Positions 1 through 5,934 of a stretch of 5,934 nucleotides of DNA are shown in pieces. Location of the stretch: IMG/VR virus record IMGVR_UViG_2526164609_000027, one strand, 5' to 3'. Made by a program: the position numbers and the translations under genes. The DNA comes from a virus. Its lineage: Duplodnaviria; Heunggongvirae; Uroviricota; Caudoviricetes. The notes under the pieces are model-generated. The model ran no database searches and was not told the DNA's origin. It saw only the letters and a program-made list of their open reading frames with translations. How positions within the stretch are numbered: the stretch's first letter is position 1; every line of letters begins with the position of its first letter.

Positions 1-225
1 AACGCCCATAATGCGTGCAGTTGCCCGGCATCCAACGCCATTCATGGCCATATCAATAATTTTCTGGTGCGTACCGGGTTGAGAAGCGGTGTAAGTGAAC
101 TGCAGTTGCCATGTTTTACGGCAGTGAGAGCAGAGATAGCGCTGATGTCCGGCAGTGCTTTTGCCGTTACGCACCACCCCGTCAGTAGCTGAACAGGAGG
201 GACAGCTGATAGAAACAGAAGCCAC
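1..225 (-). CDS. insA: IS1 InsA (transposition inhibitor / N-terminal transposase part), 3'-truncated by window edge
   Basis: GTG start at 225-223 (minus). Reading frame translates without stops to [75 protein letters not shown], matching InsA as I recall it. The track ORF 42..254 (-) is the overlapping -1 frame, not the real gene. Confidence 0.85.
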
Positions 226-257
226 TGGAGCACCTCAAAAACACCATCATACACTAA

Positions 258-280
258 ATCAGTAAGTTGGCAGCATCACC
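258..280 (-). repeat. IS1 terminal inverted repeat (IRL, about 23 bp)
   Basis: Sequence ggtgatgctgccaacttactgat on the minus strand; this is the outermost IS1 end and marks the insertion junction at 280/281. Confidence 0.8.
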
Positions 281-517
281 AAGGCGAGCTTCATTTAACG
301 CCTTACGCAGTTGCAGAATTTCAGATTCCAGTTCAGCCACCGTGCGGGAACCAGGAGTACCGAGCCCTTTTCTGGCGGCGGTAACCCATTGTCCTAAAGT
401 GCCTTCAGGAAGGGATAATCGGGAAGCGCCTTCACTGATCGAAAGTTGATTTTCAAGAACCGTTCTGACAGCTTCGGCTTTGAACTCTTTAGAGTAACGT
501 TGGTTTTTTCTGCTCAT
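281..517 (-). pseudogene. IS3-family transposase OrfA (HTH + leucine-zipper part), truncated by IS1 insertion
   Basis: Translation MSRKNQRYSKEFKAEAVRTVLENQLSISEGASRLSLPEGTLGQWVTAARKGLGTPGSRTVAELESEILQLRKALNEARL has the HTH-then-heptad architecture of IS3-family OrfA. In the track ORF (254..517) the last 8 residues GDAANLLI and the stop are encoded by the IS1 terminal repeat, so the native ORF is cut at 280/281. Confidence 0.7.
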
Positions 518-571
518 TATTAGCTCCTTCTGATGCCATTCTATTTCAGGAAGGAGTGTCCGTTAAACTCA
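281..571 (-). mobile_element. IS3-family insertion sequence remnant (outer end plus 5' part of orfA), interrupted by IS1
   Basis: orfA-like ORF preceded on the minus strand by a leader beginning TGAGTTTAACGGACAC..., with an AAGGAG RBS 7 nt before the ATG. The TGA-initial terminus is typical of IS3-family IRs; boundary at 571 is inferred, not verified. Confidence 0.5.
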
Positions 572-802
572 GGCTACCTCACTGTTCGCGTTGCTGTTGT
601 GGCCGACGTTTGTGGTGTCAGCCAAAGAGCAATCTATAAATGGATGGATAACGGAAAATTGCCTCGCACAGAATATACCGGCGAAACAAATTACGCTGAA
701 AAAATCGCTCTTGCATCAAACGGATTATTTTCTGCCGATGCAATTTTAACTATTGGCAGGAATAAAACTACTACGAAAAAGCTGATGGGAGTTGATTCAT
801 GA
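533..802 (+). CDS. Cro/CI-type HTH DNA-binding protein (YdaS-like, Cro-like); start uncertain, 5' end possibly disrupted
   Basis: 89-aa ORF containing an HTH-like segment VADVCGVSQRAIYKWMDNGKLP, immediately upstream of and overlapping (ATGA) the YdaT-like gene, as in the Rac ydaS-ydaT arrangement. The ATG at 533 lies inside the predicted IS3-family terminus and has no SD; in-frame alternatives are GTG 599 and ATG 644, neither with a good SD. Confidence 0.5.
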   Translation: MPFYFRKECPLNSGYLTVRVAVVADVCGVSQRAIYKWMDNGKLPRTEYTGETNYAEKIALASNGLFSADAILTIGRNKTTTKKLMGVDS

Positions 803-1224
803 AAATCAAGCATGAACACATCCGCATGGCGATGAATGCCTGGGCGCATCCGGACGGCGAAAAAGTACCGGCTGCGAAAATTACCAAATCGTATTTCGAG
901 CTGGGAATGACGTTCCCGGAACTGTATGACGACAGCCATCCGGAAGCCCTGGCTCGCAATACTCAGAAAATTTTCCGCTGGGTGGAGAAAGACACCCCTG
1001 ATGCGCTTAAAAAAATTCAGGCGTTGTTACCAGCTATCGAAAAAGCAATGCCACCTCTGCTGGTGGCCCGAATGCGCAGCCATAGCTCAGCCTATTTTCG
1101 GGAACTAGTGGAGACGCGGGAACGACTGGTGAGAGACGCTGATGATTTTGTCGCAGTGGCGATCGCTGGTTTCAACCAGATGAATCGTGGTGGCCCTGCA
1201 GGAAATATTGTGGCTGTGCATTGA
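799..1224 (+). CDS. ydaT: YdaT-like protein (CII-like regulator family of Rac-type prophages)
   Basis: 141 aa, begins MKIKHEHI and ends ...GNIVAVH, matching in length and at both termini my recollection of E. coli Rac YdaT (about 140 aa). Start ATG 799 overlaps the upstream stop (ATGA); GGGAG lies 8-12 nt upstream. Confidence 0.8.
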   Translation: MKIKHEHIRMAMNAWAHPDGEKVPAAKITKSYFELGMTFPELYDDSHPEALARNTQKIFRWVEKDTPDALKKIQALLPAIEKAMPPLLVARMRSHSSAYFRELVETRERLVRDADDFVAVAIAGFNQMNRGGPAGNIVAVH

Positions 1225-1295
1225 CTCGCAATATTCATACCGGATCACTTCCGGCAATTTGTGAGTAAAAAGATTCGGTATCAAAAGAGGTGAGT

Positions 1296-2366
1296 ATGGC
1301 TAACGCCTGGCTCAGATTATGGCATGACATGCCAAATGACCCTAAGTGGCGAACAATTGCCAGGGTGTCAGGGCAGCCAATTGCAACAGTGATGGCAGTG
1401 TATATCCACCTCCTGGTGAGCGCGTCACGAAATGTCACGCGAGGTCACATTGATGTCACGACAGAAGATTTGGCAAGTGCGCTCGACGTGACAGAAGAGG
1501 TAATTGATTCAATTTTGCAGACGATGCAGGGGCGGGTACTTGATGGTGATTTAATCACTGGATGGGAAAAACGCCAGGTGCTGAAAGAGGACAACGGCAA
1601 TATTCCGCAAACCGCAAAATCTCCTGCAGAGCGCAAGAGGGCGCAGCGAGAGAGGGAAAGAAAGCGGGAACAAAATGGCGATTGTCACGGCGCGTCACGA
1701 TATGTCACGCACATGTCACGACGAGTCACGACAGATAAAGATACAGATAAAGATACAGATCAAGAAGATCAAAACACTATGGTCCATGGCGTAAAAAACG
1801 CCACGAACCAGGCAGGGGATGTTCAGACCGTCAATCCTGGTCAGCCAGCAGGCACGACACCGGAAGCCGATTCAGCGTATGCGCTGAAAGCCGATTCGGG
1901 CGCTGTGCAGCAGGTGATGACCGCAAGTCCGGAGCAATCACACCAACTGCAGCAGCCTGAAGCCGATTCCGCCATTCAGCGGGAAGCCGATCGGGTAGTC
2001 CCGGAAAACACCGGGCAGTCTGTGGGACGAGTGGATTATCCGGATGTGTTCGAACAGGTCTGGCGGGAGTACCCGTTGCGTGCCGGGGCAAACCCGAAGA
2101 AATCCGCTTTCAGTGCCTGGAAGGCCAGATTACGCGAGGGGGTGCCACCAGAGGCCATGCTGGATGGCGTGAGGCGTTACGCAAGATACCTGGCGGCTAC
2201 CGGGAAAACGGGAACGGAATTTGTTCAGCGAGCGACGACGTTTTTTGGACCGGACCGGAATTTTGAGAACCCCTGGTTGCTCCCGGTAAGCGGCACGAAC
2301 AACCAGCGTTGTGTGAATCATATTTCTGAACCGGATAGCGAAATTCCGCCGGGCTTCAGGGGGTAA
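1296..2366 (+). CDS. Phage replication initiation protein with DnaT-like (primosomal protein I-like) C-terminal domain
   Basis: Long ORF directly after the cro/cII-like pair. Likely start is ATG 1296 (MANAWLRLWHDMPNDPKWRTIARVSG...) with AAGAGG SD at 1284-1289; the track's GTG 1290 abuts the SD. The C-terminus ...NHISEPDSEIPPGFRG closely resembles the C-terminal tail of E. coli DnaT as I recall it (...SEPDSQIPPGFRG). An acidic low-complexity linker (DKDTDKDTDQEDQ) sits mid-protein. Confidence 0.85.
   Translation: MANAWLRLWHDMPNDPKWRTIARVSGQPIATVMAVYIHLLVSASRNVTRGHIDVTTEDLASALDVTEEVIDSILQTMQGRVLDGDLITGWEKRQVLKEDNGNIPQTAKSPAERKRAQRERERKREQNGDCHGASRYVTHMSRRVTTDKDTDKDTDQEDQNTMVHGVKNATNQAGDVQTVNPGQPAGTTPEADSAYALKADSGAVQQVMTASPEQSHQLQQPEADSAIQREADRVVPENTGQSVGRVDYPDVFEQVWREYPLRAGANPKKSAFSAWKARLREGVPPEAMLDGVRRYARYLAATGKTGTEFVQRATTFFGPDRNFENPWLLPVSGTNNQRCVNHISEPDSEIPPGFRG
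1421..1460. repeat. Iteron cluster 1: four direct GTCAC(G/A) repeats at 10-11 bp spacing (putative initiator binding sites)
   Basis: GTCACG at 1424, 1434, 1455 and GTCACA at 1444; an inverted copy CGTGAC at 1487-1492. Lies within the N-terminal coding part of the replication gene. Confidence 0.6.
1681..1730. repeat. Iteron cluster 2: five direct GTCACG repeats at 10-11 bp spacing (putative ori core)
   Basis: GTCACG at 1684, 1694, 1704, 1715, 1725. The hexamer falls in all three codon phases, so the repeat is at the DNA level rather than a peptide repeat. The cluster resembles cluster 1 over about 45 bp (both end gtcacgacaga). Confidence 0.65.
1731..1770. repeat. Tandem 12-bp repeat (acagataaagat x2 plus a degenerate third copy) with two GATC sites, directly after iteron cluster 2
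   Basis: acagataaagat at 1731-1742 and 1743-1754, then acagatcaagaagatc; GATC at 1758-1761 and 1767-1770. Encodes the acidic DKDTDKDTDQEDQ linker. Flagged as A-rich by eye, not computed. Confidence 0.55.
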
Positions 2367-2386
2367 GTGTTAATTTCTGGTCATGA

Positions 2387-2402
2387 GGTAATTTTCAGGA
2401 GG
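2387..2402 (+). promoter_or_regulatory. Conserved translation-initiation motif GGTAATTTTCAGGAGG (SD-containing), copy 1
   Basis: Exact 16-mer shared with 2803-2818; AGGAGG ends 4 nt before GTG 2407. Confidence 0.55.
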
Positions 2403-2406
2403 GCTT

Positions 2407-2829
2407 GTGGCAAAAGTTTTTACACAAGAAGAGCGGGAAAAAATTAAAGGGCAGGTTCTTGAACTCGTACGCCAGAGTGGGCGCGAGACGTTACGACAAC
2501 TGGAAGCTAAAACTGGGGCAACAAGATATCTGATGAGCGTTCTGGCCAGAGAGCTGGTTGCCAGTGGCGATGTATACAACTCTGGTTACGGGTTATTCCC
2601 GTCTGAACAGGCGCGTAAGGACTGGCAAAATGCCCGTAAAAAGCTCTCAAGGGCAAAGCTGAAGAAACCATCTGCGGTTGATCCGGACCTTATCTGGTCA
2701 TTACCTGACGGAGAAATACGTCGCTACGACAGTCGCCTAAACATAATCTGTCGCGAGTGCCGGAAGAGCGAAGTTATGCAGCGCATATTGTCGTTTTATC
2801 AGGGTAATTTTCAGGAGGTGATGGCGTGA
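2407..2829 (+). CDS. Hypothetical protein, possibly winged-helix-like DNA-binding N-terminus (function unknown)
   Basis: 140-aa ORF with GTG start 2407 preceded by AGGAGG at 2397-2402. The N-terminal segment LELVRQSGRETLRQLEAKTGATRYLMSVLARELVASGDV looks winged-helix-like by eye; a basic central stretch (RKKLSRAKLKK) follows. No family recognised. Confidence 0.65.
   Translation: MAKVFTQEEREKIKGQVLELVRQSGRETLRQLEAKTGATRYLMSVLARELVASGDVYNSGYGLFPSEQARKDWQNARKKLSRAKLKKPSAVDPDLIWSLPDGEIRRYDSRLNIICRECRKSEVMQRILSFYQGNFQEVMA
2803..2818 (+). promoter_or_regulatory. Conserved translation-initiation motif GGTAATTTTCAGGAGG, copy 2 (inside the 3' end of the upstream gene)
   Basis: Identical 16-mer to 2387-2402; AGGAGG at 2813-2818 is 7 nt upstream of GTG 2826. 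Confidence 0.55.
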
Positions 2830-3131
2830 GGGTGAGAGTCTATATCGCCGGTCCAATGACCGGGTATAAAAATTTCAACCGTGAGGCGTTTCACAATGCG
2901 GAAGAGGAACTGAAACGGGAAGGGCATACCGTCTTAAACCCGGCAGTACTTCCGGACGGGCTGACACAGCCGCAGTACATGGATATCTGCATGGCGATGA
3001 TTCGTTGTGTGGATGCGATTTACATGCTGAAAGGCTGGCAGCGGTCAGCAGGCGCTAAGGCAGAACTGGCGCTGGCGGAGAAACTGGGGCATGCGGTGAT
3101 TTTTCAGGAGACAGCCAGTGTGCAAGACTAA
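2826..3131 (+). CDS. DUF4406-family protein (nucleoside 2-deoxyribosyltransferase-like Rossmann fold)
   Basis: 101-aa ORF with N-terminus VYIAGPMTGY...F and a C-terminal motif GWQRSAGAKAELALAEKLGHAV, recognised by eye as the DUF4406 / NDT-like pattern with a conserved Glu. GTG start 2826 overlaps the upstream stop (GTGA); GTG 2832 is an alternative. Confidence 0.75.
   Translation: MRVRVYIAGPMTGYKNFNREAFHNAEEELKREGHTVLNPAVLPDGLTQPQYMDICMAMIRCVDAIYMLKGWQRSAGAKAELALAEKLGHAVIFQETASVQD
3098..3110 (+). promoter_or_regulatory. Conserved translation-initiation motif GATTTTTCAGGAG, copy 3 (inside the 3' end of the upstream gene)
   Basis: Shares the core TTTTCAGGAG with the two 16-mer copies; AGGAG at 3106-3110 is 7 nt upstream of GTG 3118. 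Confidence 0.5.
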
Positions 3132-3573
3132 TTACCAGGCATTACGTGAACGTTATTCACCAATTCAGGTGCCGGAATGTCCTGTTTGTGGCGATGAAAT
3201 GTCGATACAGCGCATATTTTCCAGAACGCATATTGTGTATGCCTGCACAGGTGAGGGGGATGATGGATATTTTAAAACTGGTCGAACTTTTGCGGATGAG
3301 CATTACCTGAAATCGCGCGTAACCGTCGTTGATGTTAGCGATCCTGACGTACTGGCTTTACTGAAAGAGCTGGAAGTTAAAGACAAACGCATTGCAGAAT
3401 TGACAGATGCGCTTACACAAATGATTAATGCGCACAAAACCACAATTCGTTTTGGTCATGAACGCATAACTGAATGTGGTGGTGATTGCGACTCGCCGGA
3501 AAAGATGATTTCAGAAAATCCGGATATCAGAATGGCAGAGGCTGTTTTGAGAGCAGGAATAAAAACTGAATAA
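3118..3573 (+). CDS. Hypothetical Cys-rich protein (putative zinc ribbon plus coiled-coil segment), function unknown
   Basis: 151-aa ORF with GTG start 3118 overlapping the previous gene by 14 nt. Contains CPVCGDEM...(16 aa)...C and ECGGDC motifs and a heptad-like stretch LALLKELEVKDKRIAELTDALTQMI. Alternative starts GTG 3166 and ATG 3199 lack a good SD. Stop at 3571-3573, 12 bp before the IS66-family end. Confidence 0.6.
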   Translation: MCKTNYQALRERYSPIQVPECPVCGDEMSIQRIFSRTHIVYACTGEGDDGYFKTGRTFADEHYLKSRVTVVDVSDPDVLALLKELEVKDKRIAELTDALTQMINAHKTTIRFGHERITECGGDCDSPEKMISENPDIRMAEAVLRAGIKTE

Positions 3574-3622
3574 TTAAATTTAGCAGTAAGCGTGTAGCAA
3601 GAACCGTATTGACGGGGATGTG

Positions 3623-5161
3623 TTATTCAGTCGGCAGTGCTACGCGCCAGGGGAGCAGTTCGCCGACCCGGTTTATCGGCCAGTCGGCTATGACGTCAAG
3701 TACATAGCGGAGGTAGCTTTCTGGCTCCACTCCGTTCAGTTTGCACGTCCCGATCAGGCTGTACAGCAGCGCTCCCCGCTCTCCTCCATGATCCGAACCG
3801 AAGAACAGGTAGTTTTTGCGGCCCAGACTGACCATCCGCAACGCATTTTCAGCGATGTTATTGTCCGCCTCAGCCCAGCCATCATCTGCATAGTACGTCA
3901 GCGCCGGCCACTGGTTCAGGGCGTATGCGAACGCTTTCGCCAGTTCTGAGTGTCGCGACAGGGTTTTCATCTTTTCACGCAGCCAGCTTTCCAGGGATTT
4001 CAGCAGCGGTTTCGTTTTCAACTGACGTTCGGCAAGGCGCTGCTCCGCCGTCATTCCCCTTATCTCTGCCTCGATGGCGTACAGTTCGCCGATCCGTTTC
4101 AGCGCTTCCTCCGTCAGGGCTGACGGGGTGCGAACGTGCACATCGTGGATTTTACGGCGGGCGTGAGCCCAACAGGCGGCTTCCGTTATCCGGCCATCCC
4201 GGTACAGCTCGTTGAACCCGGCGTATGCATCCGCCTGCAGTACACCACTGAACCCCGCAAGATGGGTCTGCGGATGGATGCCTTTTCTGTCCGGGCTGTA
4301 AGCGAACCACACCGCCGGCGCCAGCGTTGACCCGGCGTTACGGTCGTCACGAACGTAGGTCCATAACCGCCCGGTCTTCGTTTTCTTATTGCCTGGCAAC
4401 AGCACCGGGACAGGCGTGTCATCAGCATGGAGCTTACCGTCAGTCAGCACATAGTCCTGAAGCGCTTCTTCCAGCGGTGACAGTAGCCGGCAGCATGCAT
4501 CCACCCAGCCCGACAGCAGTGAACGACTCAGCTCCACGCCCTGGCGGCCGTACATTTCAGACTGGCGGTACAGCGGGGTGTGCTCTGCATACTTTGAGAT
4601 CAGCACGCGGGCCAGCAGCCCCGGTCCTGCGATACCCCGCTCGATGGGCCGTGAAGGCGCGGGGGCCTGCACGATGGCATCGCACTGAGTACAGGCATGC
4701 TTTTCACGTACAGTCCGGATAACCCGGAAGACGCTGCGCATCAACTCCAGCTGTTCGGCGGCATCCTCACCCGGATAGCTCAGTGAGCCTCCACATTCCG
4801 GGCAGCATGACGCTGCCGGCAGCAGCCGTTTTTCATCGCGGGGGAGTGATTCGGGGAACGGTTTGCGGGTGCGGGTTTGACGCAGCGGGCGCTGCACGGC
4901 CGGGTCGTCAACCCGACCGGTAAGGGTATCACTTTCTTTCTGAAGTGCCTTCAGGTCAGCTTCCATCTGTGCGATACGACGGGAGACTTTTTCGGAGCGG
5001 CTGCCGAAGTTCATCCGGCGCAGCTTATCCAGCTGTGCCTGCAGATGGTCTATTTCGCGTTCACGCTCGTTCAGCTTTTCCAGCAGGGCACGGTTCAGCG
5101 CCTCCTGTTCGGCAAGGAGACGTTTCAGTGCATTGATATCGTCAGGAAGTGAGCTGCTCAT
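3623..5161 (-). CDS. tnpC: IS66-family transposase TnpC (DDE transposase with N-terminal coiled coil and zinc-binding motif)
   Basis: 512-aa ORF. N-terminal coiled-coil-like stretch ([26 protein letters not shown]...), CxxC...CxxC motif (CCPECGG ... CTQC), then a long catalytic region; size and architecture as in IS66 TnpC. Confidence 0.9.
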
Positions 5162-5209
5162 ACCGGGTATATTACCAGGCTCATTCAGCGTCGACCAGGA
5201 TAAAGAGGC

Positions 5210-5557
5210 TTACAACATAGTCAGGGACGTAAGCAGTCTTTTAGGCTGCCGCCAGTCGATACCTTCAAGGAGCATCGCCAGCTGTGCCGGTGTGAGGAAC
5301 ACTTTGCCATCCCGGGCTGACGGCCAGGCGAAGCGGCCGCGCTCCAGCCGTTTGGTCAGCAGACACAGTCCATCGCCGGTAGACCAGAGGAGCTTTACCT
5401 GACTGCCATTACGCCCACGGAAGATAAAAACGTGACCTGACATCGGAGCGTCTTTCAGCGTCGTCTGCACCTTTGCCGCCAGGCCGTTGAAGCCATTTCT
5501 CATATCGGTGATACCGGCAACCAGCCAAATTTTGGTCCCGGAAGGTAACGGGATCAT
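5210..5557 (-). CDS. tnpB: IS66-family accessory protein TnpB (Orf2)
   Basis: 115 aa, MIPLPSGTKIWLVAGITDMRNGFNGLAAKVQ...LAMLLEGIDWRQPK, matching the IS66 Orf2 pattern (e.g. ISEc8 ...IWLVAG.TDMR..FNGL...) as I recall it; ATG overlaps the tnpA stop (ATGA). Confidence 0.9.
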   Translation of the reverse strand: MIPLPSGTKIWLVAGITDMRNGFNGLAAKVQTTLKDAPMSGHVFIFRGRNGSQVKLLWSTGDGLCLLTKRLERGRFAWPSARDGKVFLTPAQLAMLLEGIDWRQPKRLLTSLTML

Positions 5558-5934
5558 CGCTTCAGTTCCTGTATCAGCAGAGTCAGGAGCTTTTCGCTGA
5601 CATTGCCATTAAAGCGGAGCGTCCCGTGCCGGAACGTTACCTCACAGCTGATACTGAGGGTTTCCGGATCCTCTGCGAGCGATTCTGGCTGTTCGGCAGC
5701 TGCATCGAGAGTCACAGGAAGTAGCTGGGGGCTCTCTGAAGAAGGTAATAGCAGCTTTCCCTCGCGCCATTGTTGTCGCCATTTGAACAACAGATTGGCG
5801 TTAATGCCATTTTCAAGAGCAAGTTTTGAGATGGATATCCCGGGTTCACAGGAGGCAGCAACGAGCTGCTGTTTAAATTCGGGAGGATAATTAGGGCAGC
5901 CTTTTCGCCTGCCGGGATTCACATTTTTCTGCAT
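5554..5934 (-). CDS. tnpA: IS66-family accessory protein TnpA (Orf1, HTH); possibly 5'-partial at window edge
   Basis: 126-aa ORF with an HTH-like segment (PEFKQQLVAASCEPGISISKLALENGINANLLFKWRQQW) in first position of the IS66 gene triad. Its ATG is the last three bases of the window, so the true start could lie further out. Confidence 0.8.
   Translation of the reverse strand: MQKNVNPGRRKGCPNYPPEFKQQLVAASCEPGISISKLALENGINANLLFKWRQQWREGKLLLPSSESPQLLPVTLDAAAEQPESLAEDPETLSISCEVTFRHGTLRFNGNVSEKLLTLLIQELKR

Follow-up and report, generated by a model that had tools for sequence, protein, structure and literature searches.

A four-stranded DUF4406 protein of the NDT/DNPH1 superfamily, encoded in the early operon of a Rac-like lambdoid prophage remnant, is a candidate deoxynucleotide N-glycosidase

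Human DNPH1 (Rcl; PDB 4p5e, 8qhr, 4fyh) is a 2'-deoxynucleoside 5'-phosphate N-hydrolase of about 145 aa with a five-stranded sheet. Its catalytic triad consists of Tyr24, Asp80 and Glu104; Ser98 together with Ser128' of the partner subunit holds the phosphate, and Ile29 and Ile76 hold the base (PMC10603095). In MilB, which like BcmB is an N-glycosidase of CMP and hydroxymethyl-CMP (PDB 4jem, 4ohr, 4jen), a Phe replaces the Tyr and ribose is accepted (PMC10603095). A phage-encoded, NDT-like enzyme, DmtZ, has been described as the dAMP hydrolase and deoxyribose-5-phosphate transferase of PurZ0 Z-genome phages (NAR 2026, PMC12884076). In these phages the DutZ/DUF5664 pyrophosphohydrolase makes dAMP, which DmtZ either hydrolyses or uses to move deoxyribose-5-phosphate to 2-aminoadenine. 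Mutants of DmtZ in Glu103 or Tyr6 are inactive, and the position of the general acid is occupied by Asn77, with the T. brucei enzyme TbPDT cited as another case without Asp (PMC12884076). The authors of that study built their own HMM, Pfam having none (PMC12884076).

The DNA analyzed here (the window) is a stretch of 5,934 nucleotides from a Caudoviricetes record (IMGVR_UViG_2526164609_000027). Its plus strand carries at 2826–3131 an open reading frame of 101 codons that begins with GTG, ends with TAA and encodes a product of 101 aa. A Shine-Dalgarno-like AGGAGG, read from the sequence, is located 7 nt 5' of the start (2813–2818, plus strand), and the GTG overlaps the TGA of the preceding DUF977 gene in a GTGA (2826–2829, plus strand), suggesting translational coupling of the two genes. 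The product scores 129 bits with Pfam DUF4406 (PF14359), for which the cutoff is 22 (E = 9.1e-38), residues 4–93 spanning profile positions 2–91 of 91, and it matches PHROG 355 with E = 5e-48. Given these scores, the motifs on which the first-pass annotation was built are not due to chance. VYIAGPMTGY was found at residues 5–14, and SAGAKAELALA at residues 74–84 fits the pattern S-x-G-x-K-A-E-L-x-L-A, the conserved Glu being Glu80. Comparison with two E. coli homologues yielded a dN/dS of 0.12–0.13, by which measure the frame is a real gene under purifying selection.

The gene is intact and already annotated. The protein is 100% identical to RefSeq WP_001266147.1 (E. coli FDAARGOS_944), a DUF4406 gene annotated in E. 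coli CFSAN029787 matches over all 306 bases with 100% identity, and the closest protein cluster (99% identity) is named for Shigella boydii. A search of NCBIfam gave no match, nor did the PADLOC defence profiles at E ≤ 1. Since it is identical to an annotated RefSeq gene and belongs to a standard Pfam family with an NDT link in phage annotations, we regard it as an ordinary, already known family member.

The plus-strand genes from 533 to 3573 constitute the early-right operon of a Rac-like lambdoid prophage. The operon starts with a Cro-like HTH ORF (533–802), followed by a YdaT/CII-like ORF (799–1224), as assigned from the Pfam and PHROG searches, and by a gene for a prophage replication initiation protein (1290–2366; PHROG 3729, E = 5e-255). 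The upstream neighbour of the DUF4406 gene is DUF977/Ren-like (2407–2829; Pfam PF06163, E = 3e-30; PHROG 142), and the downstream neighbour is Ead/Ea22-like (3118–3573; Pfam PF13935, E = 2e-20), overlapping the DUF4406 stop by 14 nt. No plus-strand promoter or terminator motifs were found between 533 and 3546. The prophage context initially proposed for the gene is thus correct. Bases 1771–3585 share 99.6% identity with a Rac-like prophage of E. coli FDAARGOS_944, which adjoins tRNA-Ser/mtfA and in which three of these genes are annotated, WP_001266147.1 being the DUF4406 product.

Membership of the DUF4406 protein in the NDT/DNPH1 (DrHyd) superfamily is secure. A profile of 76 family members matched TbPDT (2a0k) over its full length (E = 1.9e-4), which was the only significant sequence match in the PDB. 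The same structure was the best Foldseek match, and the top Foldseek matches were NDT/PDT enzymes. Of the 76 members, 27 touched Nuc_deoxyrib_tr, 44 DUF1937 and 37 DUF7768 in Pfam. The window protein scored 14.5 bits for Nuc_deoxyrib_tr (PF05014), below the cutoff of 28.8, and 22.7 bits for DUF1937 (PF09152), just under the cutoff of 23 and over the C-terminal half only. A single-sequence search of the PDB gave no significant match to DNPH1 and returned matches to Mediator subunit 29 only, and a first profile of 27 sequences returned one sulfhydrylase; both were judged to be chance, so that the sequence connection to NDT enzymes emerged only with the profile of 76 members. Profiles, alignments and Foldseek hence agree with the original assignment: the protein belongs to DUF4406, its fold is of the NDT/DNPH1 type, and a conserved Glu occupies the position of the nucleophile. 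The predicted model adopts the flavodoxin-like alpha/beta fold of the NDTs. However, only four strands were predicted (residues 4–8, 35–37, 64–67 and 90–93) and the chain ends at residue 101, in place of a five-stranded sheet and a C-terminal segment serving the site of the partner subunit. According to the model the protein therefore terminates after strand 4, lacking the segment that completes the neighbouring active site. Candidates for taking the place of this segment are the conserved loop N38-P-A-x-L-P-x-G-L, Asn18/Arg19 and Trp71. The closest solved structure, 1t1j (DUF1937; structural-genomics target APC5043, 'hypothetical protein'), has 16% identity to the window protein and, being itself uncharacterised, adds no functional information on DUF4406.

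Residue correspondences were taken from a family hhalign comparison with human DNPH1 and from the HMM alignment to TbPDT, and the active-site geometry described here rests on these alignments. The sequences used for human DNPH1 and L. leichmannii NDT are identical to the PDB chains over the crystallised regions. Glu80 corresponds to the nucleophile Glu104 of DNPH1 and to the Glu of the TbPDT motif GTAFE, and lies in a G-x-x-x-E at the start of the helix that follows strand 3. Tyr6, at the end of strand 1, corresponds to Tyr24 of the DNPH1 triad (NDT Tyr7), which orients the Glu and excludes a 2'-OH. The codons for Tyr6 to Gly13 (YIAGPMTG) occupy 2841–2864 on the plus strand, and the alignment places the loop from G9 to G13 opposite GSIRG, the phosphate/base loop of DNPH1. 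Met11 and Tyr51 occupy the columns of the base-stacking residues Ile29 and Ile76, respectively. The 5'-phosphate binder Ser98 aligns with Ser74, a small uncharged residue as in DNPH1, where nucleoside transferases have Asp; the codons from Ser74 to Glu80 (Ser-Ala-Gly-Ala-Lys-Ala-Glu) lie at 3045–3065, on the plus strand, and were placed by the DNPH1 and TbPDT alignments and by conservation counts. Among 118 representatives conservation was 100% for S74 and G9, 99% for E80 and 98% for G76 and Y51, and position 6 was Tyr in 83% and Phe in 15%. Because the column that binds the 5' end holds an invariant Ser rather than Asp, as in DNPH1 and MilB, the alignment points to a 5'-phosphorylated substrate, that is, Ser74 argues for a nucleotide over a nucleoside.

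The fourth key position differs. In the helix before strand 3 the general-acid Asp (DNPH1 Asp80, NDT Asp72; Asn in TbPDT) is replaced by Cys55, the last residue of Tyr51-Met-Asp-Ile-Cys55 (codons 2976–2990, plus strand, from the same DNPH1 and TbPDT alignments). Among the nearest 118 representatives, position 55 is Cys in 61% and Asp in 16%. Distant phage members have Asp there (Ariel, RTH11, Wildcat, Monty, Aminay, Lego, phi297, RHph_Y60 and DFL12phi1), mostly within a Y-x-R-x-D motif, where the clade of E. coli and Vibrio has YMDIC. By eye Asp53 might have been equated with DNPH1 Asp80 as the general acid; this candidate was rejected, since both the hhalign and the TbPDT alignments place Cys55 in that column. 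Asp53 is moreover only 43% conserved and covaries with Arg60, and the distant members carry Asp55. The covariation of Asp53 and Arg60 is as expected of a structural salt bridge rather than of a catalytic residue. By alignment, three of the four key positions are consequently canonical and the fourth is Cys in the E. coli/Vibrio clade. The active site assumed at the outset was thus recovered in part: Tyr6, Ser74 and Glu80 are canonical, whereas the general-acid position holds Cys55 and the C-terminal element acting in trans is absent. A residue other than Asp at the acid position is compatible with activity, as in DmtZ (Asn77) and in TbPDT, the other case cited.

Compared with the described enzymes, the window protein is short. 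DNPH1 has Asp80 where the window protein has Cys55, and it is longer, with about 145 aa and one strand more; its helical element with His56/Glu55 and its shielding loop have no counterpart, and the C-terminal extension that contributes Ser128' to the partner site is absent. In MilB the Phe at the position that sets ribo- versus deoxyribo-specificity is Phe17, in place of Tyr6, and the phosphate-binding Arg23 falls in the column of Thr12. The NDTs (L. leichmannii NDT, 1f8x; TbPDT, 2a0k; PF05014) have the YIAGP start and the G-x-x-x-E motif in common with the window protein, but differ in their 5'-OH-binding Asp (here Ser74) and in the C-terminal Asn123'/Tyr157' elements, which are missing here. 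The window protein and DmtZ are both phage-encoded and NDT-like, with Tyr6 and a specificity loop at residues 11–13, and comparable in the Glu nucleophile and the non-Asp acid position; a further parallel is the dNTP pyrophosphohydrolase to which DmtZ, like DUF4406 members of several phages, is linked or fused. In contrast, DmtZ, which could be compared by description, has about 145 aa and five strands as against 101 aa and four, and it travels with purZ0 and dutZ, neither of which is present in the window or the reference prophage.

We inspected 17 annotated phage loci for the surroundings of DUF4406 genes. In all of them the gene was situated among early, replication, recombination or nin-like genes, and in 5 of the 17 a dNTP pyrophosphohydrolase gene lay within 3 kb. 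The Ariel locus has a MazG-like gene and a DUF5664 gene, and the Monty locus a pyrophosphatase. In Xanthomonas phage RTH11 the gene for an NTP pyrophosphohydrolase ends at the start of the DUF4406 gene, with a dCTP deaminase nearby. Aminay encodes a 264-aa protein with the DUF4406 domain at its C-terminus, and its gene is directly followed by one for a PF18909 dATP/dGTP diphosphohydrolase. In Vibrio phage 1.030.O the stop of a DUF4406 gene of the Cys55 clade overlaps the start of a dUTPase gene, and BFVD contains phage proteins that join a DUF4406-type fold to a dATP/dGTP diphosphohydrolase domain. The link to dNTP pyrophosphohydrolases (MazG, DUF5664, Dut) across the 17 loci is suggestive only. 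Neither the window prophage nor its intact relatives have such a partner, and a PurA/PurZ or Dut homologue was found neither in the window nor in the 31-kb reference prophage.

Two of the inspected genes are extended at the N-terminus. Aminay gp56 (2509–3303 of its locus) has about 160 aa and the RTH11 protein (2788–3303 of its locus) about 70 aa before the DUF4406 domain, neither extension matching Pfam. Both genes abut a dNTP pyrophosphohydrolase gene, and the extensions might represent a further nucleotide-metabolism module. Twenty longer representatives with N- or C-terminal extensions were scanned for fused Pfam domains and none were found; these extensions may be gene-call artefacts.

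DUF4406 is among the more widespread phage accessory families of uncharacterised function. An exhaustive profile search at E ≤ 1e-3 gave 17,472 clusters at 50% identity, and by tblastn the domain occurs in 519 of 50,697 phage records, mostly of Vibrio, Arthrobacter, Gordonia, Mycobacterium and Pseudomonas phages. The family had been called uncharacterised and common in phages, and these counts uphold the description; a literature search for functional studies of DUF4406, PF14359, DUF1937 or PHROG 355 found none. At a threshold of at least 80% DNA identity the gene is present in 1200 of 5426 complete E. coli genomes (22%), O157:H7 included, with up to four copies per genome. The O157:H7 copy lies among small ORFs of no assigned function, with the replication genes on one side and the Q antiterminator on the other. 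Existing labels vary. A DUF4406 protein of about 120 aa in Arthrobacter phages Cote and Warda and Mycobacterium phage Ariel is labelled in three ways, different actinophage records naming it 'deoxycytidylate deaminase', 'MazG-like pyrophosphatase' or 'nucleoside deoxyribosyltransferase'. Cote gp55 ('deoxycytidylate deaminase') and Ariel gp162 and Warda gp27 ('MazG-like pyrophosphatase') were considered as possible fusions and rejected, because they have only 121–126 aa, approximately a lone DUF4406 domain; the labels are therefore read as naming noise.

Taken as a whole, the alignments and gene contexts lead us to propose, with chances that we judge to be about even, that the protein is a dNMP N-glycosidase acting through Glu80 and adjusting the dNMP pool during lytic growth. 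It is a minimal, four-stranded member of the superfamily, and its gene is an accessory early one in the stretch of a Rac-like lambdoid prophage that separates the replication genes from the Q antiterminator. Glu80 would attack C1' of the substrate, releasing the free base and leaving a covalent deoxyribose-5-phosphate–enzyme intermediate. Water would resolve this intermediate, or possibly another base, in which case the enzyme would be a phosphodeoxyribosyl transferase. Tyr6 would set the orientation of Glu80 and keep out a 2'-OH, Ser74 and the G9–G13 loop would hold the 5'-phosphate, and Met11 and Tyr51 would sandwich the base; the protein would presumably dimerise, the superfamily being one of homodimers or higher oligomers of dimers with active sites at the interface. 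The probable role would be to reshape or clean the dNMP pool in lytic replication, downstream of dNTP pyrophosphohydrolases. Several observations speak against such a glycosidase: Cys55 at the acid position, a sheet of four strands with no equivalent of Ser128' or Asn123'/Tyr157', and the missing pyrophosphohydrolase partner in the window prophage and its intact relatives. Moreover, it is not obvious why a lambdoid phage should destroy dNMPs.

The same truncation and the same Cys would suit a protein that has kept the pocket and lost the chemistry, a degenerate nucleotide binder serving as a sensor, a sponge or the partner of another phage protein. Beyond the four strands of the model, the lack of a trans-acting C-terminus and the replacement of the acid in the E. 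coli/Vibrio clade, such a binder would be in keeping with the uncharacterised state of 1t1j and with the inactive binders known in the wider TIR/DrHyd/SLOG class (PMC9503650). We nevertheless consider it unlikely, as Glu80, Ser74 and an aromatic residue at position 6 (Tyr or Phe, 98%) are retained and dN/dS is low, relatives with Asn as the residue at the acid position are active, and a Vibrio homologue of the very same clade is coupled to a dUTPase. A true nucleoside 2'-deoxyribosyltransferase, swapping bases between deoxynucleosides for salvage, is what the PHROG 355 label and many phage annotations imply, and both the Foldseek ranking and the sole significant PDB sequence match would agree, as would the conserved Tyr6 and Glu80. 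Against this, where TbPDT and NDT have the Asp that binds the 5'-OH, the family has an invariant Ser, in common with DNPH1 and MilB, which are nucleotide-specific; the C-terminal residues completing the transferase site are absent and the Nuc_deoxyrib_tr score is below its cutoff; the phage labels are themselves so inconsistent ('MazG-like', 'dCMP deaminase', 'hydrolase') that they carry no experimental weight. A nucleoside transferase is accordingly improbable.

The missing acid could also be explained by a different leaving group: a charged, nicotinamide-type one would need no general acid, and the protein might then hydrolyse NAD+ or ADP-ribose-derived immune signals by TIR-like chemistry, as a phage counter-defence. 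This we consider very improbable. The sequence links are to NDT, DUF1937 and DUF7768, no Pfam TIR-family match occurred among the 76 members and PADLOC gave none either; position 6 holds the Tyr that serves as the deoxyribose gate of the superfamily (MilB Phe17 versus DNPH1 Tyr24), the partners in other phages are dNTP pyrophosphohydrolases and not NAD-pathway genes, and the viral DrHyd members in a survey were only of the cyclase type (PMC9503650). Finally, the first-pass annotation had suggested an action on unusual or modified deoxynucleotides. An enzyme specific for these might, for example, destroy damaged dNMPs or the hmdUMP- or hmdCMP-type nucleotides of rival phages. DNPH1 and MilB do prefer hydroxymethylated pyrimidine nucleotides (PMC10603095), and DmtZ acts in a modified-base (Z) pathway (PMC12884076). 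However, the co-occurrence with DNA-modification genes that would be looked for was seen neither in the window nor in the intact reference prophage (FDAARGOS_944) nor in the O157 prophage; nothing in the window surroundings points to DNA modification, the gene being a standard annotated one in a decayed prophage. The carriers are many ordinary temperate phages, the partners that recur at other loci are dNTP pyrophosphohydrolases of the ordinary kind, and a place in a repressor-controlled early operon is unlike that of lysogen-expressed exclusion genes. With no support at the locus, modified-nucleotide specificity appears doubtful at best.

A narrower version of the dNMP N-glycosidase proposal concerns the Cys55 clade of lambdoid and Vibrio temperate phages. 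These proteins could be distinct minimal dNMP N-glycosidases or phosphodeoxyribosyl transferases with a Tyr-Cys-Glu site, working without the canonical Asp or the trans C-terminus and in a conflict role, for instance destroying non-canonical or defence-generated deoxynucleotides or starving competing phages. We offer this as a speculative and rather unlikely reading; if true, it would provide DUF4406, with its more than 17,000 sequence clusters, with a first function. More generally, if DUF4406 proteins are dNMP glycosidases acting after dNTP pyrophosphohydrolases, ordinary temperate phages would in general control their nucleotide pool at the level of the base, as has been shown to date for Z-genome phages alone (DmtZ). 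The present analysis adds the Cys at the acid position, the nucleotide argument from Ser74, the truncation to four strands and the recurrent pyrophosphohydrolase neighbours and fusions.

The window prophage is an IS-flanked, IS-eroded remnant. Its left end (window 1–540) is IS debris, with an IS1-like fragment at about 1–250 and an IS3-family orfA (HTH_Tnp_1; 254–517, minus strand) whose ORF ends early. The IS-matching DNA reaches to about 540 and so covers position 533, where the Cro-like ORF begins; the window prophage therefore appears to lack both its repressor gene and its native early promoter. At the right end an ISEc22 element (IS66-family) occupies about 3578–5934 and runs past the window end, with tnpC at 3623–5161, tnpB at 5210–5557 and tnpA from 5554 to 5934 and off the end, all on the minus strand. 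Many E. coli genomes contain copies to which this one is 99.5% identical. It was inserted a few bases 3' of the Ead/Ea22-like stop, where the FDAARGOS_944 prophage has other genes. In a comparison of window 787–1770 with that prophage the YdaT/CII-like gene was only 85% identical, and bases 1226–1770, the 5' half of the replication gene, had no match in it, the identity of 99.6% setting in at 1771. This pattern suggests a mosaic prophage with a recombination junction within the replication initiator gene. The Ead/Ea22-like protein has a Cys-rich, zinc-ribbon-like N-terminus (CPVCGDEMS ... YAC) with weak matches to zinc-ribbon families in Pfam, and it gave a weak match to LmuB in PADLOC (E = 0.034).
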